Notes: a model not told the origin generated them from the letters alone. A stretch of DNA of 64,000 nucleotides from Acidobacteriota bacterium (GCA_012521815.1 JAAYLR010000030.1:5434-69433), one strand, 5' to 3'; positions 4,659 through 55,316 are shown, counted from the stretch's first letter. Translations and numbers: made by a program.

Positions 4659-4669
4659 CCGGAGGCGCC

Positions 4670-7351
4670 ATGAGCGTCCACAACCTCGGCCGGATCTTCG
4701 ATCCGAAGCGGATCGCCCTCGTGGGCGCCTCGCCCAACCCGAACAGCGTCAGCGGCAAGGTGCTCTCGAACCTCGTCACCGGCGGCTTTCCCGGCGTCGT
4801 CTACCCCGTCCATCCGACCCAGGAGGCGGTGCTCGGGATCCCCTGCTTCCCCGACGTCGCGAGCCTGCCGCGGGTGCCCGAGCTCGCGATCGTCTGCACC
4901 CCGGCCGAACAGGTGCCGGCCGCCGTCACCGCCTGCGGCGAGGCCGGGATCCTCGGCCTGATCGTGATGTCCGCCGGCTTTCGCGAGACGGGCGAGGCGG
5001 GGCGGGCGCTCGAACAGGAGGTGCGCGCCGCGCACGCCCGCTTCCCCGGGATGCGGATCCTCGGGCCGAACTGCCTCGGGGTGATCGTCCCGCGCCGCAA
5101 CCTCAACGCCAGCTTCGGCCCCGCGATGCCGCGCGACGGCCAGATCGCCTTCCTCTCGCAGTCCGGAGCGCTCTGCACCTCGGTGCTCGACTGGGCGCGC
5201 GACGAGCGTGTCGGCTTCTCCCACTTCGTCTCGCTCGGCAACGCCCTCGACGTCGGCTTCGGCGATCTCATCGACTACTTCGGCGAGGACGAGAAGACCC
5301 GCTCGATCCTGCTCTACATCGAGTCGGTCAGCCGGGCGCGGGCGTTCATGACCGCCGCACGCGCCTTCGCCCGCACCAAGCCGATCCTCGCCTTCAAGGC
5401 CGGGCGCTTCCCGACGTCGGCCGCGGTCGCCGCCTCGCACACCGGCGCGATGGCCTCGGAGGACGCGGTCTACGACGCCGCCTTCGAACGGACCGGGATC
5501 GCCCGCGTCTTCGATCTCGGCGACGTCTTCGACTGCGCCGCGCTGGTAGGCCGCAGCCGGATGCCGCACGGCCCCCGCCTCGGCATCGTGACCAACGCCG
5601 GCGGCCCCGGCGTGGTGGCGACCGACGCCCTCGTCGCGGCCGGCGGCGAGCTCGCCACGCTCGCGCCCGCCACGCTCGCCGCGCTCGACGACTGCCTCCC
5701 GCCCGCCTGGTCGCACGGCAACCCGGTGGACGTCCTCGGCGACGCCGGCTCGCGGCGGCTCGAGAAGGCGGTCGAGGCGGTGCTCGCCGACCCCGGCGTG
5801 GACGCGCTGCTCGTGATCCTCACCCCCCAGGCGATGACCAACCCCACCGGCGCCGCGAAGGTGCTCGCGCGGCTGGCGGAGAAGAGCCCGAAGCCGGTGC
5901 TCGCCGCCTGGCTCGGCGGCCAGGCGATGCGCGAGGGGGCCGGCATCCTCGCCGAGGCCGGGGTGGCCGCCTACCAGACCCCCGAGCAGGCGGTGCGCGC
6001 CTTCATGACCCTCGTCGCCTACGCCCGCAACCTCGAGATCCTCTACGAGACGCCGAAGGACGTGGCGATCGAGCTCCCGTTCGACCGCGCCGAGGCGAAG
6101 CGCGCCTTCGTCGCCCGCGCGATCGCCGGCGCCGGCACCCTCTCCGAGGAGAGCTCGAAAGAGCTCCTCCACGCCTACGGGATCCCGGTCGTGCGCGCGC
6201 GGCCGGCGGCCGACGCCGCGGCGGCGGTGGCGCTCGCCGAGGAGCTCGGCTACCCGGTGGTGCTCAAGATCCACTCCCCCGACATCACCCACAAGACCGA
6301 CGTCGGCGGCGTCGCCCTCGACCTGGGCAGCGCGGAGATGGTCACCGCCGCCTTCGATCAGATCGTGCGCAACGCCCGCGAGCGGCGGCCGGAGGCGCGC
6401 CTCGCGGGAGTGACCGTGCAGCGGATGGTGCAGGCGCGCGACGGGGTGGAGCTGATCCTCGGCGTGAAGCGCGACGCGGTCTTCGGCACGGTGATGATGG
6501 CCGGCATGGGCGGGATCGGCGCCGAGCTGCTCGGCGAGCGCAGCCTCGGCTTCCCGCCCCTCAACGAGCGGCTCGCGCGCCGGATGCTCGAGAAGCTCCG
6601 GCTCTGGCCGCTCCTCGCCGGCTACCGGGGCCGGCCGCCGGTCGATCTCGACCGGCTCGTCGCGGTGCTCATCCGCCTCTCCTACCTCGCCGCCGACTAC
6701 CCGGAGATCGCCGAGCTCGACATCAACCCGCTGCTCGTGAGCCCCGGCGAGGTGATCGCGCTCGACGCCCGGGTGGTGCTCGATCGCGCCCCCGACGGCG
6801 CGCTCGACGAGGCGTACCCGCACCTCGTCCTCCGCCCCTACCCCGAGCGGCTGGTCCGGCGGGCGGTGCTGCGCGACGGCACGCCGGTGACGCTGCGGCC
6901 GATCAAGCCCGAGGACGAACCGCTCTGGCACGCGATGCTCGCGAGCTGCTCGCGCGAGTCGCTCTACTCGCGCTTCCGCTCGCACTACAACTGGGCGACC
7001 CACGAGGCCGCGACCCGGCACTGCTACATCGACTACGCGCGGGAGATCGCGATCGTCGCCGAGGTCGAGGAGCGGAGCGAGCGGCGGCTCGTCGGGGTCG
7101 GGCGGCTGATCGCCGACCCCGGGCACGAGGAGGCCGAGTACGCGGTGCTGGTGATCGACGCCTTCCAGAACCGCGAGCTCGGCTCGCTGCTCACCGACAC
7201 CTGCATCGAGGTCGCCCGTGGCTGGCAGTTGCGGCGGCTGGTGGCCGAGACCGACACCACGAACCGGGCGATGATCGCGGTCTTCGCGAAGCGGGGTTTC
7301 GAGATCCGCACCGGCGAGGACTCGACCGTCGAGGTCTCGCTCCCGCTCTGA
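4670..7351 (+). CDS. pat: protein lysine acetyltransferase Pat (acetyl-CoA synthetase (ADP-forming)-like domains + C-terminal GNAT)
   Basis: 893 aa. The N-terminus has a CoA-binding / succinyl-CoA-synthetase-like fold (VGASPNPNSVSGKV..., ATP-grasp) and the C-terminal ~200 aa is GNAT. GGAGG precedes the ATG at 4670. An alternative GTG at 4655 overlaps the cobB stop (GTGA). Confidence 0.85.
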   Translation: MSVHNLGRIFDPKRIALVGASPNPNSVSGKVLSNLVTGGFPGVVYPVHPTQEAVLGIPCFPDVASLPRVPELAIVCTPAEQVPAAVTACGEAGILGLIVMSAGFRETGEAGRALEQEVRAAHARFPGMRILGPNCLGVIVPRRNLNASFGPAMPRDGQIAFLSQSGALCTSVLDWARDERVGFSHFVSLGNALDVGFGDLIDYFGEDEKTRSILLYIESVSRARAFMTAARAFARTKPILAFKAGRFPTSAAVAASHTGAMASEDAVYDAAFERTGIARVFDLGDVFDCAALVGRSRMPHGPRLGIVTNAGGPGVVATDALVAAGGELATLAPATLAALDDCLPPAWSHGNPVDVLGDAGSRRLEKAVEAVLADPGVDALLVILTPQAMTNPTGAAKVLARLAEKSPKPVLAAWLGGQAMREGAGILAEAGVAAYQTPEQAVRAFMTLVAYARNLEILYETPKDVAIELPFDRAEAKRAFVARAIAGAGTLSEESSKELLHAYGIPVVRARPAADAAAAVALAEELGYPVVLKIHSPDITHKTDVGGVALDLGSAEMVTAAFDQIVRNARERRPEARLAGVTVQRMVQARDGVELILGVKRDAVFGTVMMAGMGGIGAELLGERSLGFPPLNERLARRMLEKLRLWPLLAGYRGRPPVDLDRLVAVLIRLSYLAADYPEIAELDINPLLVSPGEVIALDARVVLDRAPDGALDEAYPHLVLRPYPERLVRRAVLRDGTPVTLRPIKPEDEPLWHAMLASCSRESLYSRFRSHYNWATHEAATRHCYIDYAREIAIVAEVEERSERRLVGVGRLIADPGHEEAEYAVLVIDAFQNRELGSLLTDTCIEVARGWQLRRLVAETDTTNRAMIAVFAKRGFEIRTGEDSTVEVSLPL

Positions 7352-13506: not shown

Positions 13507-14625
13507 TCAGAGCTTCGCCGCGATGGCGCGGCCGAGATCGAGGGTGGTGGCGCTGCCGCCCATGTCGTAGGTGCGGACCTGCCCCTCGGCGATCACCGCC
13601 GCGGTCGCCGCCTCGATCCGGCCCGCCATCTCCGTCTCGCCGAGCCAGTCGAGCATCATCTTCGCGGCGAGGATGGTGGCGATCGGGTTGACCTTGTACA
13701 TCCCCGCGTACTTCGGCGCCGAGCCGTGCGAGGGCTCGAAGACGCCGAGCTTCGTGCCGATGTTGCCCGAGCAGCCGAAGCCGAGGCCGCCGACCATCTG
13801 CGCCGCGAGGTCGGAGATGATGTCGCCGTAGAGGTTCGGCGCCACGAGCACCTCGTAGGAGAGCGGGTTCTTCAGCAGCCACATGCAGATCGCGTCGATG
13901 TTCGCGTCGTCGCAGGCGATCTCCGGGTAGTCGGCGGCGACCTTGCGGGCCATCTCGAGGAAGAGCCCGTCGGTGGCGCGCACCACGTTCGCCTTGTGGA
14001 TGATCGTCACCTTCTTGCGGCCGTGCTTGCGGGCGTACTCGAACGCCGCCCGTGCGATCCGCTCCGAGCCGTGGCGGGTGTTGATCTTGCACGAGATCGC
14101 GTACTCGTCGAGGGCGCGGCCGGCGAACGGCTTGAACGCCGGGGCGTTGCGGCCGAGCACCTCGGCCACCTCGGCCGGCACCGGCGAGAACTCGACGCCG
14201 GCGTAGAGGTCCTCGGTGTTCTCGCGGAAGACCACGAGGTCGATCCCCTCGCGCAGGTTGAGCGGGTTGCCCGGATACGCCTTGCAGGGGCGCAGGCAGG
14301 TGTAGAGATCGAACAGCTGCCGCATCCGCACGATCGGCGAGCGGTACTTCAGCCCCTTGCCCTGCAGCTCGGGGACGAGCTCGGCCTCGGCGGTCTTCGC
14401 CGGCTTCGAGGTGATGGCGCCGAACATCGCGGCGTCGACGCGGCCGAGCAGGTCCACGGTGCGCTGCGGGAAGGCGTCTCCCTCCCGGCACCAGAACTCC
14501 CAGCCGATGTCACCATGTTCGTAGTCGGCCCGGAAGCCGACGGCGTCGAGCACGAGGCGGGTCGCTTCGAGGACTTCGATGCCGATTCCATCTCCGGGCA
14601 GCCAGGCGATCTTGTAGCTCTTCAT
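13507..14625 (-). CDS. isocitrate/isopropylmalate dehydrogenase family protein (LeuB-/tartrate-DH-like)
   Basis: 372 aa from the ATG at 14625 (MKSYKIAWLPGDGIGIEV...NLYGDIISDLAAQMVGGLG). This is a beta-decarboxylating dehydrogenase signature. The ORF 13507..14790 is over-extended. Confidence 0.85.
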   Translation of the reverse strand: MKSYKIAWLPGDGIGIEVLEATRLVLDAVGFRADYEHGDIGWEFWCREGDAFPQRTVDLLGRVDAAMFGAITSKPAKTAEAELVPELQGKGLKYRSPIVRMRQLFDLYTCLRPCKAYPGNPLNLREGIDLVVFRENTEDLYAGVEFSPVPAEVAEVLGRNAPAFKPFAGRALDEYAISCKINTRHGSERIARAAFEYARKHGRKKVTIIHKANVVRATDGLFLEMARKVAADYPEIACDDANIDAICMWLLKNPLSYEVLVAPNLYGDIISDLAAQMVGGLGFGCSGNIGTKLGVFEPSHGSAPKYAGMYKVNPIATILAAKMMLDWLGETEMAGRIEAATAAVIAEGQVRTYDMGGSATTLDLGRAIAAKL

Positions 14626-14788
14626 GGATTCGCTCCGCAGGGGTTGGTGGCCCGTCCGGCCACCGGGGTCGGGCCGCTTCGGCGGCCGGAAACAGGCTAT
14701 CCGCCGGACGTTGCGCCGTCGCCACCCCGCCGGGCGGGAGGCATACAATGCCCTCGACTCTGAACCGCGACCGCGGAGGCGGAACACC

Positions 14789-17700
14789 ATGCGAGCGAAC
14801 TGTCAGAGCAGTGCCGGGAGAACCCTGTCCGGCCTCGGGGGGATCCTCCTCCTCTCCCTCCTTCCGGGCCTCGCCACCGGCGCCGGAGCGGCCCCTCCCG
14901 AGGTGCTCCCCGGCCGGGTCCCGGCGGCGGGGGAGCAGGCGGTGACGGTGCGGGTCGCCGCGCTCGGACGCTACGCGCTCGCCGTCGAGAGCCTCCAGGG
15001 GGTGGCGCTCACCCACGTCGACCGGCTCGCGGGGGAGGTCGCAACCGCCGGCGAGGCCGGGGAGGCCGACGGCCGCCTCGATCTCTTCCTGGAGCCGGGG
15101 GAGATCCGGGTGCGTACCCGGGGGCCCGAGCTCGGCCGCGGGGAGGCCCGGCTCACGCTCACCCCGTTCCGCGAGCTCCACGGCAACGCCCTGCCGCACC
15201 TGACGGCCACCGCGCAACTCTCCACCGAGCTCGGCGACCACGAGCAGCGCTCCTGGTGGGTGGAGGCCGTCGCGGGCGAGCCGCTCCTCGCCGAGGCCGC
15301 CGGCCGCCATCTCGCCGACCTCCGCCTCTGGCAGGGGGGCGACTGGCTCCTGCCCGCCCTCCCGGTCTGCGAGCCGATCGAGCCGGTGGCGGGACGGCCG
15401 CTCACCCGCTGCCGCCTGCAGGCCGAGCTGCCGCCGGGGCGCTACCGGCTGAGCGCCTACGGCGGCCCGGGCCTCGCCTGGGCGCGGGCGGGCGGCGAGC
15501 GCCCGCTCCACCTCCGGCTCGGCACCTCGCGCCGGGCCGAAGCGGGGCGCGAGCGGCTCACGATCGGCCCGTTCGGCAGCGAGCGCTTCGTGCTGCCGGG
15601 GAGCACCACCTTCGCCCGGATCGAGCTCCCCGCGCCGGGGCGCGCCACCCTCCGGTTCGGCGACTACGAGCCCGACGCGCCGTTCGCGGCGCCGTGGCGG
15701 ACGGCCGAGATCGACGAGGAGACGCTCGCGCCGGTCGTCGAGCTGCGGCGCCGGGAGACCGACGGCGAAGCCCTTCTCGAGATCGAAGGGATTCCCGGGC
15801 AGGAGCTCGTCTGCGAGCACCTCCGCGTCGCCCGCAAGGCGCCGGTCACCGGCGCCGGGCCGCACTGGGTCGGAAGCGTCCACGCGGGCACCGCGGCCGA
15901 CGCGATCGACGCCACCGGCCTCCTCGTCCTGGAGGTCCCCGACGGCGCCCCCCGCCTCCTCGCCGCCCGGACGGTCGAGCTCGGCGGCGACGGCGTCTGG
16001 CACCGCCGCTTCCAGCTCGACGACACGGCGACGCTCTTCCTCCACGTCGCGGAGCCGGGCAGCTGGGAGCTGACCACCGCCGGCGTCGCCGTCGAGGCCC
16101 GGATCGAGCCGTTCCTCCTCTCGCCCCCCGCCAACTACCGGCCACCGGCGCTCCGCGAGACCCCGCTCTCGTGGGAGCTCGACCGCGGCTACTGGGTCCT
16201 CACGCTGCGCCCCGTGCGGCGCGGCATCGTGACGGCGGCGCTCCATCCGGCGGGCACCCCGGTGCCGGCGGCGTTCACCGCTCCCCTGCCGGCGGTGCGG
16301 CTCGGTGCGGTCGACCTCGACCCCGAATCGGCCTACACCCTCTGGCTCAACGAGCAGCCGGACGTCGCCGTCGGACCGGTCGCCCGGCCGCTGCCGCTCG
16401 ACCTCGCCGCGCCGCTGCCGCTCGCCCTGCGCCCCGGCGAGGAGATCGAGCTCCCGGTGCTCGTCCCGGCGCCCGGCCACCTGCGGGCGGTCGTCGAGGA
16501 CGGCTCGGCGTGGGAGCTCTCCCTCGACGGCGCCCCCTGGACGCTCGAACCCGGGGTGAGCCCGGGCACGGGAGCGCTGCGAGTCCGCTCGACCTCCGCG
16601 GCGAGCCTCTCGGCCTCGCTCGCTCTCGTCCCGGACGCGGTGGCCGGCGCACCGGCCACCGCACTGGCCGCGCCGCCGCCGCTCCTCGCCGAGAGCCTCT
16701 CCCTCACCCTCGCCCGCCACGAAGGGCGGAGCTTCCGCCTGCCCGTCACCCGCGCCGGGCTCTACACGTTCGAGTCGACCGGGCTGCTCGCCACCGCGGG
16801 GAGCCTGCGGGGGCGGGTGCTCGCGCCGTTCGCCTTCGGGATGGAGAACGGCACCGGCCGGAACTTCCGCCTCGCCGCCTGGCTCCCCGAGGGGGAGTAC
16901 CAGCTCCAGGTCGAGAGCCTCGGCGAGAGCGCCGGGCCGGCCGGGCTGCGCTGGCGCCGCGGCGAGCTGCGCGACGGCGGCGAGCTGCTGCCTGCGGTGA
17001 GCGCCCGCGCCGAGCTCGGCGCCGGGGAGGGGATCGTCTGGCGGTTCGACGTTCCGGAGCCGGGGCGGTACGAGGTCGAGGCCCGGCGCGCCGGCCGGCC
17101 GGCGCCGTTCCGGCTGGAGGATCCGGAAGGGTTCCCCGTCGGGGAGGCGCTCGCCGAGGGGATGGCGGAGGTCCGGCTCACCCCGGGCTCCCACCGCCTC
17201 CTCGTGCTCGGCGATGACGCCGCCGGGCCGCTCGTCGTCCGGCTCGAGCGTCACGACGAGCCGGCGGCCGCCACCGGCCACGGACCGCACCCGCTGCCGC
17301 TCGGCGTGACGCGCGAGCACCTCTGGCGCGAGCCGGAAGGAGAGGCGAGCGAAGCCTCCGAGCGGCCGCCCGACCGGTGGCGCTTCACCCTCCCCGCCCC
17401 CGCCGAGGTCATCCTCACCCTCGACCCCGAGATGACCGGCACCCTCCTGCGGCCGGGCGCCGCGGCGGACGAACCGCTCCCGGCCGCGCGGCCGCTCTCC
17501 CTCCGGCTCGCCGCCGGCGAGCACGAGCTCCGCCTCCGTGCCGGCACCCCCGACGATCTGCGCCCCTACGAGCTCAGGATCGACCCGGTGCCGCTCCTCG
17601 CCGGCCTCGAGCGGGAGCTGACGGCTCCCGGCGAGGTCGAGGTCGCGGTCGGTGCGGCCGGCAGCTATCTCCTCGAATCGCGCGGCGAGGCCGACCTCCG

Positions 17701-20014
17701 GGCCCGGCTCCTCGACGCCGGCGGACGGGTGGTCGCCGCGGGGGACGACCGCCCCGGCGACTGGAACTTCCAGCTCGCGCTGCCGCTCGTGGCCGGCCGG
17801 TACCGGCTGCAGGTCGATCCGGTCGGCGGCGAGCCGGCCCGGAGCCGGGTGGCGATGCGTGCTCTCCCCGAGCGCGAGGAGGGCAGCTGGAATGCCGCCG
17901 GCGAACGACGGGTCACCCTCGGCGAAGAGGCGCTCGTCCTCCCCCTCGCGCTCCCGGCGCGGGCGGAGCTGCTCGCCGTGGCCGCCCGCTCGGAGAGCGC
18001 CGTCGGCCTGCGCCTCGACCGGCGCGACGGCGACGGCTGGCGGGAGGTGGCGGCCGCCGACGGCCCCGGGGCGCTCCTCGCCGTGCCGCTCGGCGAGAAA
18101 GCGCCGCTCCGGCTCCGCCTGCTCGGGCTCGACCGCCGGCCGGCGGCGGTGACCCTCCACGGCTTCGCCGGACCGCTCCGCGAGCTCCGGGAGCGTGATC
18201 TCGCGCGTGGGGTGACGCTGCCGGTACTCGCCGGCTTCTCCCCGCCGCTCGCCGCCGCCACGCTCCGGCTCGAGCGCCCGGGCGCCCTGCGCCTCTCGGG
18301 GCAACCGGCAGCGCTGCTCGCGAGCGGCGAGCCGCTCGCCTCGCTCACCTTCGCCGGCGACCTCCTCGTCGCGACCGGAAACCGCCTCTGGGTCGCCGCG
18401 GCGGGCGGCGGGGCGCCCCGGCTCACCGCCACCCGCGCGACGGCGGGAAGTGAGGGTCTCACCCTGTCCCTCACCCCGGACGGCCGCGCGGCCTGCGATC
18501 TCGCGAACCCCGAAGCGCTGCGCTGGGTGGAGGCGACCGCCCCCGCCGGGACCCTCCTCGTGAACACGGCTCTGGCGGACGGCAGCCGCCGCTGGGATCG
18601 CGCGAGCGCCCCCGGCCGCGCGGGCGCCGCGACGGTCGCCCAGCCCGGCGACCGGACGGCGTTCGTGCGGAGCGAAGGGTCGCTCTCCCCCTCGGTACAG
18701 CTGAAGTCGACACCGCTCGCGCTCGCCCCCGCCGTCGAGCTCGCTGCCGGAGAGAGCCGTCTTCTCGAGCTTCCCGCCGGCGGCGGCCGGGAGCTCCGGC
18801 TCCCGGCCGGGCGGTGGCGCCTCGCGCTCGCCCTCGAACGCGGCGCCGCGCTCGCGCTCGGCGACGCGGCCACCCCGGAGGCGCTCGTCCGCGCCGAGGA
18901 AGAGCACCACGCCGAAAGCCTCCTGACGTCGGCCCGGCGGGCGCTCGCGCTCAACCCGACCGGCGCGGCGCGCCAGCTCCGGATCGCCCTCGAACCCCTC
19001 CTCCCCGGCGAGGAGACCGCCGCCCGCCTCGGGCCCGACGGGCGGCTGGAGCTCCTCGCCCCCGGCGCCGGCACCCTCCGCCTCGACCTCCCCCCGGCGA
19101 GCTGCCCGGTCACCCGGCTGCGCGTCGCCGGCGCCACGGCGCTCCTCGTCGCCGCCGACGGCAGCCTCCAGCACGGCCCCGAGCTGCGCTGGCCCGCGGT
19201 GGGCGGCACGCTCCGGCTCCGGCACGACGCCGGCCCGGTGGCCCTCTGGCCCGCCGCCGGCGACCCCGCCGCGCTCGGCTTCTCCCCGGCGCCTGCCGCC
19301 ACCCCGCTCGCCTCCCGGACGCGTCTCGCGGGGGGTGCCGAACAGCGGCTCACGCTGCCCACCGGAGCCCCCGCGCTCCTCGCGCTCCACGGCCCGGCAC
19401 CGCTCTTCGCCGCCCTCGTGACCGCCGACGGCATGGTGGGCTGGGCCGGCCTCCTCGCGCCGGGCACGGCCGCCGTCCTGCCGGTGCCGGACGGCGGCGG
19501 CGAGCTCCGCCTCCGGGGGCTCGCCGGCGCGCCGCTGCCGGCGGGGGTCGAGATCGCCCTCGCCCCGGTGACGCCGCTCGGCGACGGCCTCGGCGAGGAG
19601 CGGCTCCTCGCCCCCGGCGAGGCGCACGGCTACACCTTCACCCTGGAGACGGCCCGCCGCGTCGGGCTCGGGGTGCGGAGCGACAGCGGCCGGGTGGAGG
19701 GCACGCTCTTCGCCGCCGACGGCCGCACGCTCGCCGCGGGCGGCCTCCTCTGGGAGGAGCTGCCGGCCGGCCGCTACCTCTTCGCGCTCCAGCTCTCCCC
19801 GGCCGCCCCCGCCGCCCTCGCCGCGCCGGTGGCCGTGGGGCTCACCCCCGCCGGGCTCGCCCCGCCGCCGGCCGCCGAGCTTGCCCGGCTGCGCGAGCTC
19901 GCCGCCGCGCCCGACCCGCCGCCCCCCGGGGCGATCGCCGGCGAGATCGCCTGGCCCCTGACCGGCATCCCGAGCGAGTCCGACGAACCGACCTCCGAGG
20001 AGAGCGACCGATGA
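14789..20014 (+). CDS. giant secreted repeat protein (1741 aa) of unknown function, first gene of the A2M-PBP1C operon
   Basis: GGAGG SD plus the ATG at 14789. Signal peptide MRANCQSSAGRTLSGLGGILLLSLLPGLATGAGA. There are at least eight [PA]GxYx[LV]-type ~100-aa modules (PGRYRLSA, PGSWELTT, AGLYTFES, EGEYQLQV, PGRYEVEA, AGSYLLES, AGRYRLQV, AGRYLFAL). No thioester or catalytic motif. The stop overlaps the next start (ATGA at 20011-20014). Confidence 0.7.
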   Translation: MRANCQSSAGRTLSGLGGILLLSLLPGLATGAGAAPPEVLPGRVPAAGEQAVTVRVAALGRYALAVESLQGVALTHVDRLAGEVATAGEAGEADGRLDLFLEPGEIRVRTRGPELGRGEARLTLTPFRELHGNALPHLTATAQLSTELGDHEQRSWWVEAVAGEPLLAEAAGRHLADLRLWQGGDWLLPALPVCEPIEPVAGRPLTRCRLQAELPPGRYRLSAYGGPGLAWARAGGERPLHLRLGTSRRAEAGRERLTIGPFGSERFVLPGSTTFARIELPAPGRATLRFGDYEPDAPFAAPWRTAEIDEETLAPVVELRRRETDGEALLEIEGIPGQELVCEHLRVARKAPVTGAGPHWVGSVHAGTAADAIDATGLLVLEVPDGAPRLLAARTVELGGDGVWHRRFQLDDTATLFLHVAEPGSWELTTAGVAVEARIEPFLLSPPANYRPPALRETPLSWELDRGYWVLTLRPVRRGIVTAALHPAGTPVPAAFTAPLPAVRLGAVDLDPESAYTLWLNEQPDVAVGPVARPLPLDLAAPLPLALRPGEEIELPVLVPAPGHLRAVVEDGSAWELSLDGAPWTLEPGVSPGTGALRVRSTSAASLSASLALVPDAVAGAPATALAAPPPLLAESLSLTLARHEGRSFRLPVTRAGLYTFESTGLLATAGSLRGRVLAPFAFGMENGTGRNFRLAAWLPEGEYQLQVESLGESAGPAGLRWRRGELRDGGELLPAVSARAELGAGEGIVWRFDVPEPGRYEVEARRAGRPAPFRLEDPEGFPVGEALAEGMAEVRLTPGSHRLLVLGDDAAGPLVVRLERHDEPAAATGHGPHPLPLGVTREHLWREPEGEASEASERPPDRWRFTLPAPAEVILTLDPEMTGTLLRPGAAADEPLPAARPLSLRLAAGEHELRLRAGTPDDLRPYELRIDPVPLLAGLERELTAPGEVEVAVGAAGSYLLESRGEADLRARLLDAGGRVVAAGDDRPGDWNFQLALPLVAGRYRLQVDPVGGEPARSRVAMRALPEREEGSWNAAGERRVTLGEEALVLPLALPARAELLAVAARSESAVGLRLDRRDGDGWREVAAADGPGALLAVPLGEKAPLRLRLLGLDRRPAAVTLHGFAGPLRELRERDLARGVTLPVLAGFSPPLAAATLRLERPGALRLSGQPAALLASGEPLASLTFAGDLLVATGNRLWVAAAGGGAPRLTATRATAGSEGLTLSLTPDGRAACDLANPEALRWVEATAPAGTLLVNTALADGSRRWDRASAPGRAGAATVAQPGDRTAFVRSEGSLSPSVQLKSTPLALAPAVELAAGESRLLELPAGGGRELRLPAGRWRLALALERGAALALGDAATPEALVRAEEEHHAESLLTSARRALALNPTGAARQLRIALEPLLPGEETAARLGPDGRLELLAPGAGTLRLDLPPASCPVTRLRVAGATALLVAADGSLQHGPELRWPAVGGTLRLRHDAGPVALWPAAGDPAALGFSPAPAATPLASRTRLAGGAEQRLTLPTGAPALLALHGPAPLFAALVTADGMVGWAGLLAPGTAAVLPVPDGGGELRLRGLAGAPLPAGVEIALAPVTPLGDGLGEERLLAPGEAHGYTFTLETARRVGLGVRSDSGRVEGTLFAADGRTLAAGGLLWEELPAGRYLFALQLSPAAPAALAAPVAVGLTPAGLAPPPAAELARLRELAAAPDPPPPGAIAGEIAWPLTGIPSESDEPTSEESDR

Positions 20015-23000
20015 TCCCTGCCGCCACCCGCCGCGCCCTCCCCCTGCTGCTGCTCCTCCTCGCACCGGCCGCGCTCGGGGCCGTGGCGGCGCGCGCCGCC
20101 GACCAGCCGCCGCCGCCCGCGCGTCCGGCCGCCGCCCGCGACGGGGTGACGCTCGTCCCCGACCGCTTCCTCCGCCGCTGGGATCCGGTGACCCTCTTCT
20201 TCCCCACCGTGCAGGGGCCCGAGCGGGGGGGGCCGGAGGCGCACCCGGAGCGCTTCGTCACGATCACCCCCGAACAGCCCGGCGCCTTCACCTGGCTCGA
20301 CGGGCGGACGCTCCAGTTCCAGCCGGCCACCCCCTGGCCGGCGCTCGCCGAGGTGACGGTGCGGGCGGGCGAGCGGCGCTTCCCGCTCGCCGTCCTCCTC
20401 TCCGCGCCGGTGGCGAGCCACCCGGCCGACGGCGCCGAGGGGCTCGCGCGGCTCGACGAGATCACGCTCACCTTCTCCGATCCGGTCGACCCCGCGGCGC
20501 TCGCCCGGGCGGTCACGGTCGAGATCGCCCCGCTGCCCGGCGCCGGGAGCGAGGGCGCCCGGCGCCTCGCCCCCGGGGAGGTCACGGTCAAGCCGCTCCC
20601 GCCCGACCCGGAGGGGAACCACCGGTATGCGCTCCGCCTCCCCGGCCCGGTGCCGGGCGGACACCGCCTCCACCTGCGGCTGGGGCTCTCCCCCGCGGCC
20701 GGCGAGCCCGGCCTCGCCGCCGAGCTCGGCTTCGCCACCGCCATCCCGTTCCGCGCCCTCGCCTTCGGCTGCCGGAGCCGCCAGCTCCCGGTGCTGCCCG
20801 CGGGCGCCCTCTACCCGGCCGCGCAGGCGCTCGCCTGCGAGGGGGACGACCCGGCGGTGGTCGTCGACTTCTCGGCGCTGCCCCGGACGCTCGGGATCGT
20901 CGAGGCGAAGAACCTCGTCCGCCTCTCCCCGCCGGTCGCCGACCTGACCGCCACCCTCTCCGGCCGCCGCCTCGAGCTGCGCGGCGCCTTCACGCGGGAG
21001 AGCGCCTACCGGGTCCGGCTCGTCCCGTCGCCGCTCTCCGACGAGGAGGGCCGGCCGCTCGACCTCGGCGGGGCCAACGAGCTGACCCTCGCCTTCTCCC
21101 GCCCGAGCCCGTACCTGCGGCTGGCCGCCAGCACCGGGATCGCCGAACGGCGCGGGCCGCAGATGATCCCGCTCACCGGGCGCGGGGAAGAGCGGATCGA
21201 CCTCCGGATCCACCGGATCGACCCGCTCGACCGCGCCTTCTGGCCGTTCCCCACGACCCCGGTCGCGGTGGACGAGGGGCAGCGCCCCCCCGGCCCCGGC
21301 GAGCGCCCGGAGCCGTGGACGCAGCCGCAGAGCGGGCCGGAGGCCGCGGAGATCGCGGCCCGGATCGTCGCGCTCGGCTCCCCGGCGCTCTCCGCCCTCG
21401 TCGACCTGCCGCTCCGGCGCGACGGCGGCTCGGCGAGCTTCGGGCTCGACCTGCAGCCGCACCTCGCCCGGATCGCCGGCGAAGGGGCCCCGGGGACCTA
21501 TCTCGTGGGCCTCCGGCGCCTCGGCGGCGGCGCGGAGCGGCACTACCTCCGGCTCCAGGTCTCCGACCTCGCGCTCACGACGCTCGAAGAGGCGCGGCGG
21601 ACCGTCTTCCTCGTCACCTCGCTCGCCGACGCCCGCCCGGTCGCCGGCGCCGAGGTGCGGGTGGAGGGGGTGCGCTGGGCGGGCGGCCGTCCGAGCTGGA
21701 TCGACCTCTTCCGCGGCCGCACCGACGGCACCGGCCGCGTCGCCTGGGACGCCCCCGGCTCTCCCGGCCGGGCGCATCAGCAGGTGGCGCGGATCGTGGT
21801 GGCGGCGGGCGACGACCGGCTGGTGCTCGACCCGCAGCACCCCGCCGAGGCGTACCGCGACGGACGGTGGCAGGCCGACGACGGCGGCTGGCTCCAGTGG
21901 ACGCAGGAGCCCCTCGAGTGGCGCGGCGAGGAGGTCGAGCGGCTCGCCCACCTCTTCACCGAGCGGCCGGTCTACCGCCCCGAGGACCCGGTGCACCTGA
22001 AGGCGTACCTGCGCACCCGCACCGGCGGCCGGCTCGCGCCGCTCGCTACCGAGGGGGTCTTCGTGATCGACGGCCCCGGCGACCTCGTCTGGCGCTACCC
22101 GGTCGAGCCGGCGGAGAACGGCTCCGTCTACCTGCGCTTCGAGGAGCCCGACCTGCCCACCGGCACCTACCGGGCCCGGTTCGAGGCCCTCGACGACCAG
22201 GGACCGGTGCGGGGCACGGTCTCCTTCCGCAAGGAGGCGTACCGCCTCCCCCGTTTCGAGGTGCGGCTCGACGGGCCGGAACGGGTGCCGCTCGACCGCC
22301 CGTTCGATCTCCGGCTGACCGCCACCTACTACGCCGGCGGCCGCGTCGCCGCCCGCCCCGTCGAGTGGCGCGTCACGCAGTTCCCGTACGCCTGGAGCCC
22401 GCCCGGGCGCCCCGGCTTCCACTTCTCCTCCGACGCCCGCTTCTCCGGCGAGAGCCGCTTCGAGGCGACCCCGGCGTTCGCCCGCGCCGACCTGACCGAC
22501 GAGGACGGCGGCGCCCGGCTCCGGCTCGACCCGGCGCTCGAGCCGACCGCCCAGCCGCGCACCTACGTGGTCGAGGCCACGGTGGTCGACGTCGACGAGC
22601 AGACGGTGAGCGCCACCCGGCAGGTGGTCGCGCTCCCGCCCCTCCTGCTTGGCCTGCGCGTGCCCCGGTATCTGGAGGAGGCCGGCGCGCTGCGCCCCGA
22701 GGTGCTCGTGCTCGGCCCCGACGCCGAGCCGCTCGCCGGCCAGCCGGTCACGGTACGGCTCCGCCAGCGCCGCTGGCACTCCCACCTGCGCGCCTCGGAC
22801 TTCACCGACGGCGTGGCCCGCTACGTCACCGAGATGGTCGAGGAGAACCTCGCCGAGCAGCGGGTGACGAGCGGGACCGAGCCGGTCACCGCCGGCTTCA
22901 CCCTCCCCGAGGCCGGGGTCTACGTCGTCGAGCTCGAGGCGCGCGACCGCCTCGGCCGCACCCAGCGGGTGGCGGTCGACCTCTTCGCGGGCGGCGGCGA

Positions 23001-25824
23001 GCCGGTCGCCTGGCCGCGGCCGGCGACGCCGGTCTTCCACGTCACCCCCGACCGCACCCGCTACCGCCCCGGCGACACCGCCCGGCTCGTCCTCCAGAGC
23101 CCGTTCCAGAGCGGCGAGGCGCTGGCGATCGTCGAGGCGCCCGACGGCGTCCGGTACGAATGGCTCCCGGTGCGCAACGGCCAGGCCGTCCTCTCGCTGC
23201 CCGTCGCGGGGAGCTGGACCCCGAAGATCCCGGTCCACTTCCTCCTCCTGCGGGGCCGCCTCGCGGGGACCCGGCCGCTCCCCGGCAACGCCACCGACCC
23301 CGGCCGCCCCGCCACCTTCGGGGCGACCGTCTGGCTGGAGGTCGAGCCGCGCGCCCACCGCCTCGACGTCGCGCTCGCGCACCCGACACGCGCCCGGCCC
23401 GGGGAGGAGATCGAGATCGAGGTCCGCCTCGCCGATCCCGACGGTCACCCGGCCGCCGGCGAGGTCACCCTCTGGCTCGTCGATCAGGCGGTTCTCGCGC
23501 TCGGGCGCGAGCAGCGGCTCGATCCGGTGCCGAGCTTCCTCGGCCAGCCGCGCTCCCGGTGGAGCGCCCGCGACACCCGCGCGCTCGTCTTCGGCTTCCT
23601 CCCGTTCACCGGCCAGCCCGGCGGCGACGAGGGGGAGGAGGCGGGCTCGCTGCTCGACCGGCAGACGGTGCGACGCAACTTCCAGCCGGTGCCGTTCTAC
23701 GAGCCGGCGCTCGCGGTCGGCCCCTCCGGTGTCGCCCGCGTGCGTCTGACGCTCCCCGACGACCTGACGAACTTCATGGTGCGCGCCAAGGCGGTCTCCG
23801 GCGCCGCGCGGTTCGGCTGGGCCACCGGCCGGATCGAGGTCCGCCTGCCGGTCCTCGTCCAGCCGGCGCTGCCGCGCTTCGTGCGCCCCGGCGACCGTTT
23901 CGTCGCCGGCGCGGTCGGCCGGGTGCTCGACGGCACCAGCGGGGCCGGCACCGCCGAGGCCAGGGTGGCGGGCGTCACCCTCGACGGCCCCGCGAAGCAG
24001 GCGCTCGCCTGGGAGAGCGATCGCCCCGCGCTTGCGAGCTTCCCGCTGAGCGTCCCGCCGGACGCGACCGGCGAGGCGCGGATCCGGATCGGCGCCGAGC
24101 GACGCGCCGACGGCGCCGGCGACGCCTTCGAGCTCACGCTGCCGATCCGCCCCGACCGGGAGCGCGAGCTCACCCGGGAGCTCACCCGGCTCGCCCCCGG
24201 CGGTGCGCTCCGCCTGCCGGCGCCCGCCGGCGCGGTGCGCCCGGGGAGCCTGCAGCGGCGCCTCCTGCTCACGACCGAGGCGCGGGTGGCGGCGCTCGCC
24301 ACCGGCCTCGACTTCCTCCTCGACTACCCGCACGGCTGCACCGAGCAGCGCCTCGCCGCCGCCCGCGCCCAGCTCGCGCTCGCGCGCTTCCGCGAGCTGC
24401 TCGGACGCGAGGAGGGCGCGGCGCGGCTCGCTCGCGCGGTGCGCGACACCCTCGACTGGCTGCCGCTCGTCCAGCAGCCGAGCGGGCTGTTCGCCGGCTG
24501 GCCCGGCGGCACCGGCTCGGTGACCCTCACTGCCTGGACGGTCGAGTTCCTCGCCGAGGCGGCCGAGGCCGGGCACGCGGTCGAACCCGGGGTGCGCGAC
24601 GCCGCCCTCCGGGCGCTCGCCCAGGCGCTCCGCTCCGACTACTCGGAGCTGCTCGCCGGCGAGGAGTGGGCCGAGCGGACGGCGGCACTCCGCGCCCTCG
24701 CCCGCGCCGGACGGTTCGATCCGGCGTACGGCAACGAGCTCGCCCGCCGCGCCCAGTTCCTCGACCTCGAGGGGCGCGCCAACGTCCTCGCCGCCTTCGA
24801 GCGCGGCGGCGCGGCGACGGCTCCGGCCGTGAGCCCGCTCGCCGACTCGCTCTGGGAGGGGATCGGCGTCCGGCTCCATCAGGGAGAGGAGCTCTTCGGC
24901 GGCCTCACCGGCGACGAGCGGACGCGCGATCCCCGGCTCCTCCCCTCCGAGACACGGACGATGGCGCAGATGCTCCGCGCCCTCCGCCCGCTGCCGCGGG
25001 AGGGGGAGCGGGAGCGGCGCTTCACGCTGCTCGCCGACGCCCTCGTGGCGCGCGGGCGCGGCGACGGCTGGGGGAGCACGAACGCGAACGCGGCGGCGAT
25101 CCTCGCCCTCTCCGAGCTGCTCGCCGAAGGCGGCGACGGCCCCGCGGTGCGCGCCGAGCTGCGGCATGCCGGGCGCCACGAGCCGCTCACCGTGGACGGC
25201 CGCGCGCCCGCCGTGCACTGGCGTTCGGCGGCGGCGGGCGAGGTCATGGTCGAGCTTCCGGCGACGGCCGCGGCCCCGCTCTCCGCGGTGAGCGAGGCCT
25301 CCTGGATCCCGGCCGCCTCCGGCGCGGAGGCCGCGGCCCGGCAGGCGGGGTTCGTCCTCCGCCGCACGCTCGAGATCGAGCGGCACGGAGCCCCTGCCGA
25401 GGCGCCGCCGGAGCGGGTGACGATCGACCGTCCGGGAAGCGAGGTCGCGCTCGTGCAGGGCGAGATCGTCGAGGAGCGGATCCAGATCGTGAACCCGGAG
25501 GACCGGCACTTCGTCGCGGTCGTCGTGCCGCTCGCCGCCGGCTTCGAGCCGCTCAACCCGGCGCTCGAGACCGCGCCGCCGGAGGCCCGCCCGCGCGGCC
25601 GCGACACCCTCGAGCCGACCTACGCCTTCTTCCTCGACGACCAGGCGGCGTTCTACTTCGATGCGCTGCCGAAGGGGACGTACGACCTCTTCTTCCGCGT
25701 CCGCGCCCAGATCCCCGGCCGCTTCGTGCAGCCGCCGGCGAAGGTCGAGATGATGTACGACGCGAGCGTCGCGGGCACGAGCGCCGGCGCGACGATCGAG
25801 ATCGCGCCCCGGCCCGAGCGGTGA
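20011..25824 (+). CDS. yfhM: bacterial alpha-2-macroglobulin family protein (thioester-containing, YfhM/ECAM-like)
   Basis: 1937 aa with signal peptide. Thioester motif YPHGCTEQ at about 24337-24348. Multi-domain MG-like N-terminus. Followed by a pbpC homolog with a GTGA start/stop overlap. Confidence 0.85.
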   Translation: MIPAATRRALPLLLLLLAPAALGAVAARAADQPPPPARPAAARDGVTLVPDRFLRRWDPVTLFFPTVQGPERGGPEAHPERFVTITPEQPGAFTWLDGRTLQFQPATPWPALAEVTVRAGERRFPLAVLLSAPVASHPADGAEGLARLDEITLTFSDPVDPAALARAVTVEIAPLPGAGSEGARRLAPGEVTVKPLPPDPEGNHRYALRLPGPVPGGHRLHLRLGLSPAAGEPGLAAELGFATAIPFRALAFGCRSRQLPVLPAGALYPAAQALACEGDDPAVVVDFSALPRTLGIVEAKNLVRLSPPVADLTATLSGRRLELRGAFTRESAYRVRLVPSPLSDEEGRPLDLGGANELTLAFSRPSPYLRLAASTGIAERRGPQMIPLTGRGEERIDLRIHRIDPLDRAFWPFPTTPVAVDEGQRPPGPGERPEPWTQPQSGPEAAEIAARIVALGSPALSALVDLPLRRDGGSASFGLDLQPHLARIAGEGAPGTYLVGLRRLGGGAERHYLRLQVSDLALTTLEEARRTVFLVTSLADARPVAGAEVRVEGVRWAGGRPSWIDLFRGRTDGTGRVAWDAPGSPGRAHQQVARIVVAAGDDRLVLDPQHPAEAYRDGRWQADDGGWLQWTQEPLEWRGEEVERLAHLFTERPVYRPEDPVHLKAYLRTRTGGRLAPLATEGVFVIDGPGDLVWRYPVEPAENGSVYLRFEEPDLPTGTYRARFEALDDQGPVRGTVSFRKEAYRLPRFEVRLDGPERVPLDRPFDLRLTATYYAGGRVAARPVEWRVTQFPYAWSPPGRPGFHFSSDARFSGESRFEATPAFARADLTDEDGGARLRLDPALEPTAQPRTYVVEATVVDVDEQTVSATRQVVALPPLLLGLRVPRYLEEAGALRPEVLVLGPDAEPLAGQPVTVRLRQRRWHSHLRASDFTDGVARYVTEMVEENLAEQRVTSGTEPVTAGFTLPEAGVYVVELEARDRLGRTQRVAVDLFAGGGEPVAWPRPATPVFHVTPDRTRYRPGDTARLVLQSPFQSGEALAIVEAPDGVRYEWLPVRNGQAVLSLPVAGSWTPKIPVHFLLLRGRLAGTRPLPGNATDPGRPATFGATVWLEVEPRAHRLDVALAHPTRARPGEEIEIEVRLADPDGHPAAGEVTLWLVDQAVLALGREQRLDPVPSFLGQPRSRWSARDTRALVFGFLPFTGQPGGDEGEEAGSLLDRQTVRRNFQPVPFYEPALAVGPSGVARVRLTLPDDLTNFMVRAKAVSGAARFGWATGRIEVRLPVLVQPALPRFVRPGDRFVAGAVGRVLDGTSGAGTAEARVAGVTLDGPAKQALAWESDRPALASFPLSVPPDATGEARIRIGAERRADGAGDAFELTLPIRPDRERELTRELTRLAPGGALRLPAPAGAVRPGSLQRRLLLTTEARVAALATGLDFLLDYPHGCTEQRLAAARAQLALARFRELLGREEGAARLARAVRDTLDWLPLVQQPSGLFAGWPGGTGSVTLTAWTVEFLAEAAEAGHAVEPGVRDAALRALAQALRSDYSELLAGEEWAERTAALRALARAGRFDPAYGNELARRAQFLDLEGRANVLAAFERGGAATAPAVSPLADSLWEGIGVRLHQGEELFGGLTGDERTRDPRLLPSETRTMAQMLRALRPLPREGERERRFTLLADALVARGRGDGWGSTNANAAAILALSELLAEGGDGPAVRAELRHAGRHEPLTVDGRAPAVHWRSAAAGEVMVELPATAAAPLSAVSEASWIPAASGAEAAARQAGFVLRRTLEIERHGAPAEAPPERVTIDRPGSEVALVQGEIVEERIQIVNPEDRHFVAVVVPLAAGFEPLNPALETAPPEARPRGRDTLEPTYAFFLDDQAAFYFDALPKGTYDLFFRVRAQIPGRFVQPPAKVEMMYDASVAGTSAGATIEIAPRPER

Positions 25825-28184
25825 GCCGCCGGCGCCGGCGCGCGCTCGCGCTCGCGATCCTCGCCGCGCCCCTGCTCGGGGTGGGGGGGCTCGCGCTCGC
25901 GCGCTCGGGCCTGGAGGCGCCGGCGCCGACGCTCCTGGTGCGCGACCGCGCCGGGCAGTTTCTCGGCGAGCTCCCCGCGCCGGGCGACGAGCGGCTCGGC
26001 TACTGGCCGCTCCCCGAGCTGCCGGCGCGGGTGGCGGCGGCGACGCTCGCGCTCGAAGACCGCCGCTTCGCTCGCCATCCCGGCGTCGATCCGCTCGCGA
26101 TCGCCCGCGCCTTCGTCCAGAACCGGGCGGCCGGGCGACGGCTCTCGGGCGCCTCGACGATCGCGATGCAGGTCGCCCGCCTGCAGCACCCCGGGCCGCG
26201 CGGCTACCTCCGCAAGGGGGTCGAGGCGGCGACCGCGCTCGCCCTCACCGCCCGGCACGGACGCGAGGCGCTCCTCGCCCACTATCTGCGGATCGTCCCC
26301 TACGGCCACCGGATCCACGGGATCGCCTACGCCGCCCGGCGGTACCTCGACAAGCCGGTGGCGGATCTCTCCTGGGCCGAGATCGCCTTCCTCGCCGCGA
26401 TCCCGCAGGCGCCCGCCCGCCACGACCCGTTCACCGCCGCCGGCCGCGCCCGGGCGGTGCGGCGGGGGGAGCGGATCCTCGACCGCCTCGCCGCCGACGG
26501 CCTCCTCGACGCCCACGACCTCGCGGTGGCGCGCGCCGAGATCGCCCATCTCCGCCTCCCCTGGCAGGCGGCGCGGCCCCGCGCCGCGCTCCACCCGCTC
26601 CTCGCCCTCGAATCGCGCCTCCCGCCGGACGCCCGGGCGACCGCGCCGCTGCTCACCACCACGCTCGCCCTCGAGCTGCAGGAGGAGGTCGAGGAGCTCG
26701 CCGCCCGCGCGGTGCACGCCGCCGCCGACCGGGGGGCGGGCAACGCCGCGGTCCTCGTGGTCGCACGCGGCAGCTGGGAGGTGCTCGCCGCGGTCGGCTC
26801 GACCGGCTACTACGACGCCGGCCGCGCCGGGGCGATCGACTACCTGCGGGTGCCCCGCTCCTCCGGCTCGACGCTCAAGCCGTTCGTCTACGCCCTCGCG
26901 CTCGAGCGGGGCGAGATCTCGCCGGCCACCATCCTCGACGACCTCGGCCCCGGCCCGGGCGGGATCGTCAACGCCGACGGGCGGTTCCTCGGCCCGCTCC
27001 TGCCGCGCACCGCGCTCGCCAACTCGCGCAACGTCCCCGCGGTGGACCTCCTCGCCCGGCTCGGCCTCGACCGCGTCTACGGCCTCTGCGGCGACCTCGG
27101 CCTCCACGACGGCCGCCTCCCGGCGCGCCGCTACGGGCTCGGGCTCGCGATCGGCTCCCTGCCGGTGAGCCTCGAACGGCTCGTCGGCGCCTACACCGCG
27201 CTCGCCGGAGACGGCCGCCGCCACGAGCTCGTCTGGCTCCGCCCCCGCCCCGGCCAGCCGCCGCCGGGGGCGCCGGTCCGCCTCTTCTCCGAGGAGACGG
27301 CCCGCCTCCTGACCCTCTTCCTCGCCGATCCGCAGGCCCGCCTGCCAACCTTCCCGCGGATGGGCGCGACCGAGTACCCGTTCCCGGTGGCGGTGAAGAC
27401 CGGCACCTCCTCCCGCTACCGCGACGCCTGGACGATCGCCTGGTCGGACCGCTACCTCGTCGGCGCCTGGGTCGGCGACCCCGACGAGCGGCCGATGAGC
27501 CACCTCTCCGGCTACCGGGTCGCCGCCGGGCTCGTGCAGGAGGTGCTCCTCCACCTCCACGGCGCGCGGAGCGACGGGATCGGCCAGCCCGACTTCCCGG
27601 CGCCGCGCGGCTGGCGGCGGGAGCGCCTCTGTCCGCTCTCGGGCGGCCGCGCCACCGCCGCCTGCGGCACCGCACAGCTCGAATGGCTGCCCGCCGACGC
27701 CCCCTCTCCCCCCGAGTGCACCGCGCACCGTCTCGTCGCCCTCGATCGCCGCACCGGCCGGCCGGCCCGGCCGGGCAGCCCCGACGCGACGGTCGAGTGG
27801 CGCTCGGAGCTCCGCCTTCCCCCGCGCTACGCCGGCTGGCTCGCCGCCCGGGCGCGGCCCGCTGCCGAGGAGGATGCTCCCGGAACGGCTTTCCTGCCGC
27901 AGCTCGCCGGCGTCGAGGCGCGCATCGAGGTGCTCTCCCCGGAGCCGGGCAGCCGCCTGCTCCGCGACCCGGAGACGCCGGAGGCGCTGCGCACCGTCGC
28001 GCTGCGCGCCGTCGTCGATCCCCCTTCCCCGCAGCTCGTCTGGTACCTCGACGGCCGCCCGCTCGCCACCGTGGAGAGCCCGTACGAGCTCCGCTGGCGG
28101 CTCGAGCCCGGCGAGCACGTCTTCCAGGCGCGCCTCCCCTTCGGCGGCGCCCGCTCCCGGCTGGTGCGGGTGACGGTGGAGTGA
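25821..28184 (+). CDS. pbpC: penicillin-binding protein 1C (transglycosylase/transpeptidase)
   Basis: 787 aa. The GT51 transglycosylase N-terminus has EDRRFARHPGVD and RLSGASTIAMQVARL. The transpeptidase domain has the SxxK motif GSTLKP. GTG start overlaps the A2M stop. Confidence 0.85.
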   Translation: MSRRRRRALALAILAAPLLGVGGLALARSGLEAPAPTLLVRDRAGQFLGELPAPGDERLGYWPLPELPARVAAATLALEDRRFARHPGVDPLAIARAFVQNRAAGRRLSGASTIAMQVARLQHPGPRGYLRKGVEAATALALTARHGREALLAHYLRIVPYGHRIHGIAYAARRYLDKPVADLSWAEIAFLAAIPQAPARHDPFTAAGRARAVRRGERILDRLAADGLLDAHDLAVARAEIAHLRLPWQAARPRAALHPLLALESRLPPDARATAPLLTTTLALELQEEVEELAARAVHAAADRGAGNAAVLVVARGSWEVLAAVGSTGYYDAGRAGAIDYLRVPRSSGSTLKPFVYALALERGEISPATILDDLGPGPGGIVNADGRFLGPLLPRTALANSRNVPAVDLLARLGLDRVYGLCGDLGLHDGRLPARRYGLGLAIGSLPVSLERLVGAYTALAGDGRRHELVWLRPRPGQPPPGAPVRLFSEETARLLTLFLADPQARLPTFPRMGATEYPFPVAVKTGTSSRYRDAWTIAWSDRYLVGAWVGDPDERPMSHLSGYRVAAGLVQEVLLHLHGARSDGIGQPDFPAPRGWRRERLCPLSGGRATAACGTAQLEWLPADAPSPPECTAHRLVALDRRTGRPARPGSPDATVEWRSELRLPPRYAGWLAARARPAAEEDAPGTAFLPQLAGVEARIEVLSPEPGSRLLRDPETPEALRTVALRAVVDPPSPQLVWYLDGRPLATVESPYELRWRLEPGEHVFQARLPFGGARSRLVRVTVE

Positions 28185-28207
28185 GCGGGCGATAGAGTCG
28201 GCGCACG

Positions 28208-29035: not shown

Positions 29036-29102
29036 ACCGCGGCATCCCGTCACCGGAAGTCGCCTTTCGCAGACTGGAACCCGCCGGTAAGCGGCGCCAC
29101 GC

Positions 29103-29516: not shown

Positions 29517-29587
29517 ACCGGAGGTCGAGCGTACACCGCCGCGCGCCCGGCGCGAACCGCGCGCCGCCAGGGCGGCGATCTGAGAAG

Positions 29588-55298: not shown

Positions 55299-55316
55299 AC
55301 CACCGATGGAGGAGAG

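Follow-up and report, generated by a model that had tools for sequence, protein, structure and literature searches.

We describe a giant exported protein that is probably the third part, so far undescribed, of an alpha-2-macroglobulin (A2M) cell-envelope defence system. Its gene lies in a 64,000-nucleotide stretch of DNA from an Acidobacteriota bacterium (GCA_012521815.1 JAAYLR010000030.1:5434-69433; this whole stretch is called the window below, and positions are counted from its first letter), directly ahead of an A2M gene and a pbpC-like gene. We consider it reasonably probable that the protein, an array of PPC-type beta domains, is a periplasmic scaffold or binding subunit, without enzymatic activity, for an A2M variant that lacks a membrane anchor. 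The three genes are as follows:

14789..20014 (+): giant gene, stop included, encoding 1741 amino acids (aa); GC content at third codon positions (GC3) ~0.95; identical to a hypothetical protein from a metagenome-assembled genome (MAG)
20011..25824 (+): partner alpha-2-macroglobulin, a divergent long thioester form of 1937 aa with CTEQ at aa 1443, a Sec signal peptide and no lipobox; Pfam bMG3, MG2, A2M_BRD, A2M and bMG10
25821..28184 (+): pbpC-like gene, 787 aa, with a GTG start codon overlapping the stop of the A2M gene; Pfam Transgly, Transpeptidase and BiPBP_C; best NCBIfam model TIGR02073 PBP_1c (429.6 bits)

GC content in the window is 70–81%, and long open reading frames (ORFs) therefore occur in many frames. 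Codon-position GC content (0.84/0.56/0.94 in the plus frame of the ORF at 14624..20014) singled out the coding frame of the giant gene. Its likely start is the ATG at 14789 (MRANCQ...); the residues after it include a hydrophobic stretch and an AxA-type site, and the NCBI model for an identical protein, a 1741-aa "hypothetical protein" of a Thermoanaerobaculia MAG, begins at the same residue. The product has a mass of ~185 kDa and carries a Sec signal peptide. The opposite strand carries a 1851-aa ORF (14510..20065, -), which we discarded as an artefact of high GC content, GC3 being highest in the plus frame. In this window the length of an ORF is by itself a poor guide: at 75–80% GC, stop-free ORFs of >1800 aa arise in shifted frames and on the strand that does not code, and the ORFs at 18814..25824 and 21315..28184 reach a long way upstream past the true starts (20011 and 25821). 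At this GC content, scanning 14300..29600 for sigma-70 promoters and terminators yielded no informative signal.

The stop codon of the giant gene overlaps the A2M start codon by 4 nucleotides (nt; ATGA). The genes upstream are metabolic and divergently oriented. The giant gene is the first of a translationally coupled unit (giant, thioester A2M and, usually, PBP1c) whose members stay together in many diderm phyla. We retrieved 210 proteins in a homolog search; the full-length homologs listed are mostly ~1700–1900 aa long, collinear with the query and 31–63% identical to it, and nearly all of them lack both a name and any Pfam domain. At 50% identity, the family as a whole comprises 949 representatives; full-length members almost all measure ~1700–1850 aa, and a few carry N-terminal insertions. 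Scanning one genome per species, we found relatives of the giant in 206 genomes, including Acidobacteriota, Myxococcota, Nitrospirota, Elusimicrobiota, Desulfuromonadales, Binatia, Eisenbacteria and alpha-, beta- and gamma-Proteobacteria. The order giant, A2M and (where present) PbpC is repeated in Endothiovibrio, in an Elusimicrobiota MAG and on a Holophagales chromosome. An A2M gene lies directly downstream on the same strand in 71 of 71 loci with at least 1.5 kilobases of downstream sequence, and PbpC follows the A2M in 38 of 46 loci; the eight that lack it include the Holophagales chromosome CP064972. The linkage also holds from the A2M side: four A2M homologs, picked for lying on contigs absent from the giant-protein match list, are each preceded by a Pfam-less gene of 1819–1959 aa that ends 4 nt inside the A2M gene, and tblastn confirmed all four as giant homologs. 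As judged from gene order, the genomic coupling of the giant to a distinct clade of anchor-less thioester A2Ms is obligate.

The A2M of the window is very divergent by sequence, yet its CTEQ thioester motif is intact, and CxEQ is kept in 59 of 63 partner A2Ms of related loci. It falls in a distinct "long" clade: its 120 best homologs are nearly all long forms of ~1900–2030 aa. Towards its N-terminus the partner A2M also carries a conserved VVPDRFLRRWDP motif, and around aa 134–174 it has weak Big_5/CopC-like matches; no NCBIfam model matches it, and phmmer against the PDB found no bacterial A2M. Characterised bacterial A2Ms are anchored in the inner membrane, and a lipoprotein anchor has been described for ECAM and SaA2M (PMC4498604). 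Unlike these two, the window A2M carries a plain signal peptide, and lipobox-like matches occur in 4 of 75 partner A2Ms. The giant-family N-termini are likewise of the signal peptidase I type, with lipobox-like matches in 3 of 118.

The described type I A2M operon consists of two genes and encodes a membrane-anchored A2M (PMC4498604, PMC5764988). In type I operons such as E. coli yfhM-pbpC and that of Salmonella SaA2M, for which a role in periplasmic defence and repair has been proposed, a thioester (CxEQ) A2M is likewise followed by pbpC; here, by contrast, a third, giant gene precedes and overlaps the A2M gene in all loci examined, and the window A2M is longer (1937 aa), lacks a lipobox and is very divergent. 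Our literature search found no description of a third member of the A2M-PBP1c operon, although the founding 2004 genomics account lay outside its coverage, so that a prior mention is possible. An A2M that works with operon-encoded partner proteins does have a precedent: type II A2Ms work in the multi-protein Mag complex, and that of P. aeruginosa (magABCDEF; MagD with MagA, MagB and MagF) is a periplasmic A2M complex encoded by one operon, in which MagB stabilises and localises the A2M (PMC5764988). MagD, however, lacks the thioester, and its partners are smaller than the giant protein and unrelated to it, with no Pfam family in common.

AlphaFold2 (AF2) modelled the giant protein with high confidence. 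The models, built from 43-sequence alignments with the protein in two overlapping pieces, reach a predicted local distance difference test score (pLDDT) of 90.0 and a predicted template-modelling score (pTM) of 0.84 for aa 1–837, and 88.6 and 0.79 for aa 826–1741. Both are all-beta: ~17 domains of 8–9 strands each, joined by short linkers, and one terminal helix. The exported protein runs from a signal peptide through ~17 tandem beta-jelly-roll domains (~90 residues, PPC/collagen-binding type) to a short helix and an acidic disordered tail. Along the chain, with strands assigned by DSSP and E-values from hhalign, the features are:

14789..14890 (+): Sec-type signal peptide, aa 1–34 (...LATGAGA|AP), without lipobox; read from sequence; pLDDT <50 for aa 1–32
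14900..15166 (+): D1, aa 38–126, PPC-like; strands LGRYAL (aa 59) and PGEIRV (aa 103; family RGEYK) by DSSP; D1-D8 E 2.9e-5, D1-D16 E 2.7e-5; mean identity to query 46%
15215..15520 (+): D2, aa 143–244, most conserved domain (52% identity); DSSP; motif PGRYRL (aa 216); D2-D8 E 9e-5
15545..15823 (+): D3, aa 253–345, beta domain without sequence link to other domains; DSSP, hhalign
15836..16111 (+): D4, aa 350–441; DSSP; motif PGSWEL (aa 423); window hhalign matches 418–476 with 753–809, E 3e-5
16166..16390 (+): D5, aa 460–534; DSSP; D5-D10 E 1.5e-5
16415..16633 (+): D6, aa 543–615, core repeat set; D6-D8 E 1.6e-7, D6-D9 E 2e-6
16694..16963 (+): D7, aa 636–725; motifs AGLYTF (aa 656) and EGEYQL (aa 701), strands starting at the motif Gly; D7-D10 E 2.2e-8
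16967..17254 (+): D8, aa 727–822; motifs PGRYEV (aa 758) and PGSHRL (aa 799; family PGDYRL); D8-D17 E 1e-9, D8-D10 E 1.2e-8
17276..17290 (+): GHGPH, aa 830–834, D8-D9 linker, near-invariant in 43 sequences
17312..17587 (+): D9, aa 842–933; motif AGEHEL (aa 908; family AGRYRL); D9-D10 E 1e-6
17606..17866 (+): D10, aa 940–1026, clearest PPC domain (Pfam PPC in a homolog; 50% identity); motifs AGSYLL (aa 957) and AGRYRL (aa 1002)
17744..17770 (+): DDRPxDWNF loop of D10, aa 986–994, conserved across all phyla
17870..18172 (+): D11, aa 1028–1128, without strong sequence link to other domains; DSSP, hhalign
18182..18436 (+): D12, aa 1132–1216, variable; DSSP
18458..18715 (+): D13, aa 1224–1309, least conserved domain (23% identity); DSSP
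18719..18997 (+): D14, aa 1311–1403; motif AGRWRL (aa 1340); DSSP, family consensus
19046..19252 (+): D15, aa 1420–1488; DSSP
19316..19567 (+): D16, aa 1510–1593; weak motif PDGGGEL (family LPAGxxRL); DSSP; D1-D16 E 2.7e-5
19601..19837 (+): D17, aa 1605–1683; motif AGRYLF (aa 1660); D8-D17 E 1e-9, D10-D17 E 2.7e-7
19871..20011 (+): conserved C-terminal helix, aa 1695–1705 (family GPPxEVVRRYL), by DSSP, then disordered acidic tail; pLDDT <50 from ~aa 1715

Across 44 loci, conservation is highest in D1, D2, D7 and D10 and lowest in D12–D14 and D16. In the linker motif, G830, H831, G832 and P833 are invariant and H834 is at least 90% conserved among the 43 sequences; conserved Asp-rich loops occur at DDRPxDWNF and DGRLDLF. 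GHGPH and DDRPxDWNF, both near-invariant in every phylum, may be metal sites, for Ca2+ or another ion. C-termini are rich in Glu and Asp across the family, and the helix with its strongly acidic disordered tail is present in most members; this element could be a docking site for A2M or PBP1c. The Sec signal, together with the diderm lineages in which the family occurs, points to a periplasmic location.

The original prediction, made from the sequence of the window alone, described the protein as a series of ~100-aa modules, and such modules are real: besides the ~17 beta domains that DSSP delimits in confident AF2 models, 32 of the 136 domain pairs compared by hhalign, with boundaries taken from the structure models, match at E<1e-3 (best pair D8-D17, E 1e-9). 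With reversed profiles, none of the 136 pairs falls below 1e-3 (best 2.5e-3), and composition therefore does not explain the repeat signal. Sliding 110-residue sub-alignments of the 107-sequence family alignment, run by hhalign against the whole family, gave off-diagonal matches of 1565–1667 to 698–806 (E 1.9e-8) and of 907–1009 to 699–806 (E 5e-8). D6–D10 and D17 form a tightly related core, which D1, D2, D5 and D16 join at 55–80% probability. Within the single sequence, BLASTP self-comparison returned the identity match only, and self-alignment, which the original prediction had named as a test that could refute it, was marginal: the best Smith-Waterman window score, 73, lies slightly above the null maximum of 68 but is equivocal. 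The internal duplication is ancient, and it takes family profiles or structure to see the repeats.

All eight strings that had been quoted for the recurring [PA]GxYx[LV] motif are present (aa 216, 423, 656, 701, 758, 957, 1002 and 1660; nt 15434..19783), and the motif is strongly enriched: the loose pattern [PAE]G.[YW].[LVFE] is found at 10 sites where 0.55 would be expected, and the strict pattern [PA]G.Y.[LV] at four where 0.09 would be expected, numbers reached in none of 2000 shuffles in either case. Seven of the 15 tyrosines of the protein fall in the motif. Two further parts of the description do not hold. The L-x-L-x-L stretch said to lie 60–90 residues after each motif fails for all eight; nor is there one motif per module. 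D7 and D10 hold two of the eight each, and D2, D4, D8 and D17 one each; the doublets of D7 (656/701) and D10 (957/1002) both have a spacing of exactly 45 residues, the first copy being on an early strand of the domain and the second on a late one.

In every case the AF2 models place the motif Gly at the first residue of a beta strand after a tight turn. The motif comprises a tight turn ending in Pro/Ala-Gly and then a strand with a buried Tyr and alternating hydrophobic residues, and its recurrence stems from many ancient duplications of one domain. The late-strand family consensus, L-x-P-G-x-Y-x-L-x-V, appears in D1, D2, D7, D8, D9, D10, D14 and D17 and more weakly in D16; across the family the Gly is ~100% and the Tyr ~90–100% conserved, including at sites where the window protein has lost the Tyr. 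Similar strands occur in other families: partial CarboxypepD_reg matches fall on the same motif strand in D10 and D17, the end of the Pfam PPC model (in the homolog P0010) falls on AGRYxLxVD of D10, and the published SG(x)xY motif of E. coli PliG, LPASGKYELRV (PMC5507604), is placed by hhalign on the motif strands of several domains, though not significantly. Because the motif is common to PPC, CarboxypepD_reg and PliG domains, it is a generic turn-plus-strand hallmark of this beta-sandwich class and not a functional signature. The motif and the fold are in themselves ordinary.

The expectation of a tandem beta-sandwich array of PPC, MG or Ig type is borne out for the array and for the PPC type, by AF2 and by profiles; for MG and Ig/BIg it is not, as Pfam gives no match. 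The domains are jelly rolls of ~70–110 residues that superpose on solved PPC/collagen-binding domains. On the window protein itself, Pfam and NCBIfam scans found no match, including to MG2, PPC or BIg, the models suggested for the search, and the family profile found none among PDB sequences (best E 2.5). Matches to PPC come instead from homologs: PF04151 scores 28.9 bits in P0010 and 29.4 in P0050 against a cut-off of 25.9, no single stretch passing alone. The P0010 match (model 9–70 of 70) maps to query aa 944–1011, that is, to D10; the first half of the model maps to D8 in P0050, and matches to its N-terminal half map to D9 in P0061 and P0114. Big-type domains are absent from the giant protein by Pfam, and one homolog has Big_13 at E 0.047. 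Foldseek against the PDB returned only beta-sandwich-string alignments with template-modelling scores <0.15, so that no known global architecture matches. Known PPC domains number 1–3 per protein and lie at the C-terminal end of secreted proteases; often they are removed by cleavage or serve in substrate binding. In comparison with PPC (PF04151) and the collagen-binding domains of clostridial collagenases (PDB 5sv5, 3jqw, 1nqd, 5iku), the giant has ~17 copies per chain and no peptidase.

Several other functions could be proposed for such a protein. A PliG/PPC-like array could act as a multivalent binder that captures or inhibits exogenous muramidases or proteases, as a third arm of defence beside A2M (protease trap) and PBP1c (wall repair) and not as a scaffold for the A2M. 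This is an attractive minority reading, but we regard it as unlikely. The PliG fold is matched (PDB 4dzg, 4dxz) no better than PPC or collagen-binding domains, which places the resemblance at the level of the fold. Across the 17 domain profiles, hhalign to E. coli PliG was not significant (best E 0.003, 10.7% probability), and only the SGxY strand aligned consistently. The motif shared with the giant is reportedly structural in PliG and not part of the inhibitory surface. No lysozyme-inhibitor family model in Pfam or NCBIfam matches the giant, and PliG is a single periplasmic domain of ~110 aa as against an array of ~17. Descent from the neighbouring gene can be discounted more firmly still: a very divergent A2M paralogue, an MG-domain array that arose by duplication and lacks the thioester domain, would be similar in size and adjacent to A2M, as observed, and Foldseek does align the giant with E. 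coli and Salmonella A2M over ~1000 columns at E ~5e-7. Nevertheless, we rejected it as highly improbable: comparing the family profile with that A2M by hhalign gave no significant match (E 0.06 over 29 columns) for the A2M next door. Pfam detects no MG, A2M or bait-region domain in the giant, CxEQ is absent, the models contain no helical domain, and the protein does not superpose on the "key-ring" global architecture of A2M/C3.

The original prediction also held that the protein is a long modular extracellular rod and not an enzyme. The modular beta array stands, while a free-standing rod is disfavoured. An adhesin or S-layer-like fibre at the cell surface, linked to A2M by co-expression only, would suit a long tandem beta-sandwich array with short linkers, PPC domains being common in secreted proteins, and a rigid rod would also be consistent with the high pTM. 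Adhesin repeats, however, are usually variable in copy number and closely alike, whereas here the domain number is fixed across phyla and the identity between repeats is too low for pairwise detection; the fixed count, the position-specific conservation and the high pTM argue against a variable adhesin rod. The Pfam scan found no autotransporter, type IX secretion system or sortase-type domain, and no signal beyond Sec was seen. The two-way linkage to A2M and the 4-nt overlap would also be hard to explain for an unrelated adhesin, and we consider a surface rod improbable. Somewhat less probable again is an enzyme or metal-binding protein, in which the invariant His/Asp motifs GHGPH, DDRPxDWNF and RLEDxDGWP would form an active site on a framework of beta domains. 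Searches of Pfam, NCBIfam and PDB sequences found no peptidase domain anywhere in the 1741 aa, and the absence of any catalytic family by sequence or fold suggests that the giant has no catalytic role.

A scaffold or binding subunit of the anchor-less A2M remains the reading we favour, and several observations weigh against it. The giant is the least conserved of the three partners and evolves faster (median identity to the window proteins over 44 loci is 35% for the giant, 50% for A2M and 54% for PbpC), which is also what one would expect of a protein engaged in target recognition or an arms race, or of an accessory under weaker constraint. Two-way synteny establishes co-inheritance and co-expression and does not in itself specify a mechanism. 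Domain-pair hhalign found no sequence link to the PPC-like core for D3, D4 and D11–D15 (7 of 17 domains), whose individual fold types are provisional, and PF04151 does not match the window protein at E<=10, the query lying below every Pfam threshold. GHGPH and DDRPxDWNF, if they are metal or active sites, could allow catalysis.

Gene linkage nonetheless suggests a physical partnership with A2M, in which the giant may serve as scaffold, cage part or capture platform. As a scaffold, it would hold or position the A2M, or extend the A2M trap, and perhaps bind incoming lytic enzymes. In human alpha-2-macroglobulin, completing the cage is the role of tetramerisation. A more far-reaching version, which we put forward tentatively and hold with less confidence than the scaffold role itself, is that the giant is an obligate structural subunit of an unrecognised three-component A2M system in at least ~200 environmental diderm species: it would bind the soluble, un-anchored A2M at ~1:1 and either complete the cage around trapped proteases or act as a multivalent capture platform, and the two-gene A2M and PBP1c pair would be a reduced version of the ancestral machine.

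Other genes in the window were noted in passing. Downstream of the string formed by A2M, pbpC and a nitrilase gene, 29588..34520 (+) holds three genes with overlapping start and stop codons, two of them (588 and 661 aa) without Pfam match and the third encoding a 395-aa VWA-domain protein; together they may form a further module associated with the envelope. At 40366..44214 (+) lies a second large orphan gene (1282 aa, GC3 0.95, no Pfam family at E<=1e-5). A patatin-like phospholipase gene (~53100..55215, +) precedes that of a tricorn-like protease (~55200..58670, +; PD40 repeats, Tricorn_C1, PDZ_Tricorn, Peptidase_S41); the ORFs there, 52441..55215 and 53376..58670, are longer than the coding parts marked by GC3. 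Two metabolic regulators unrelated to the giant are a Pat-like protein acetyltransferase (4655..7351, +; ADP-forming acyl-CoA synthetase domains and GNAT) and the isocitrate dehydrogenase kinase/phosphatase AceK (47866..50517, +).

Bacterial A2Ms are viewed as a rudimentary periplasmic innate-immune device, in which the caging of proteases by a monomeric A2M and the contribution of PBP1c are still-open questions. Neither the 17-domain architecture nor a role as third member is annotated in Pfam, NCBIfam or the source databases. The giant belongs to a large unannotated family (949 representatives, 206 species genomes) without Pfam, NCBIfam or PDB relative and tied in both directions to an anchor-less A2M clade. 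Its ~17 confidently modelled domains can be used to annotate a "hypothetical protein" that recurs in Acidobacteriota, Nitrospirota, Myxococcota, Elusimicrobiota and Proteobacteria. Together, these findings define a probable third component of the A2M system and a testable hypothesis for what it may do there: complex formation, scaffolding or target capture.

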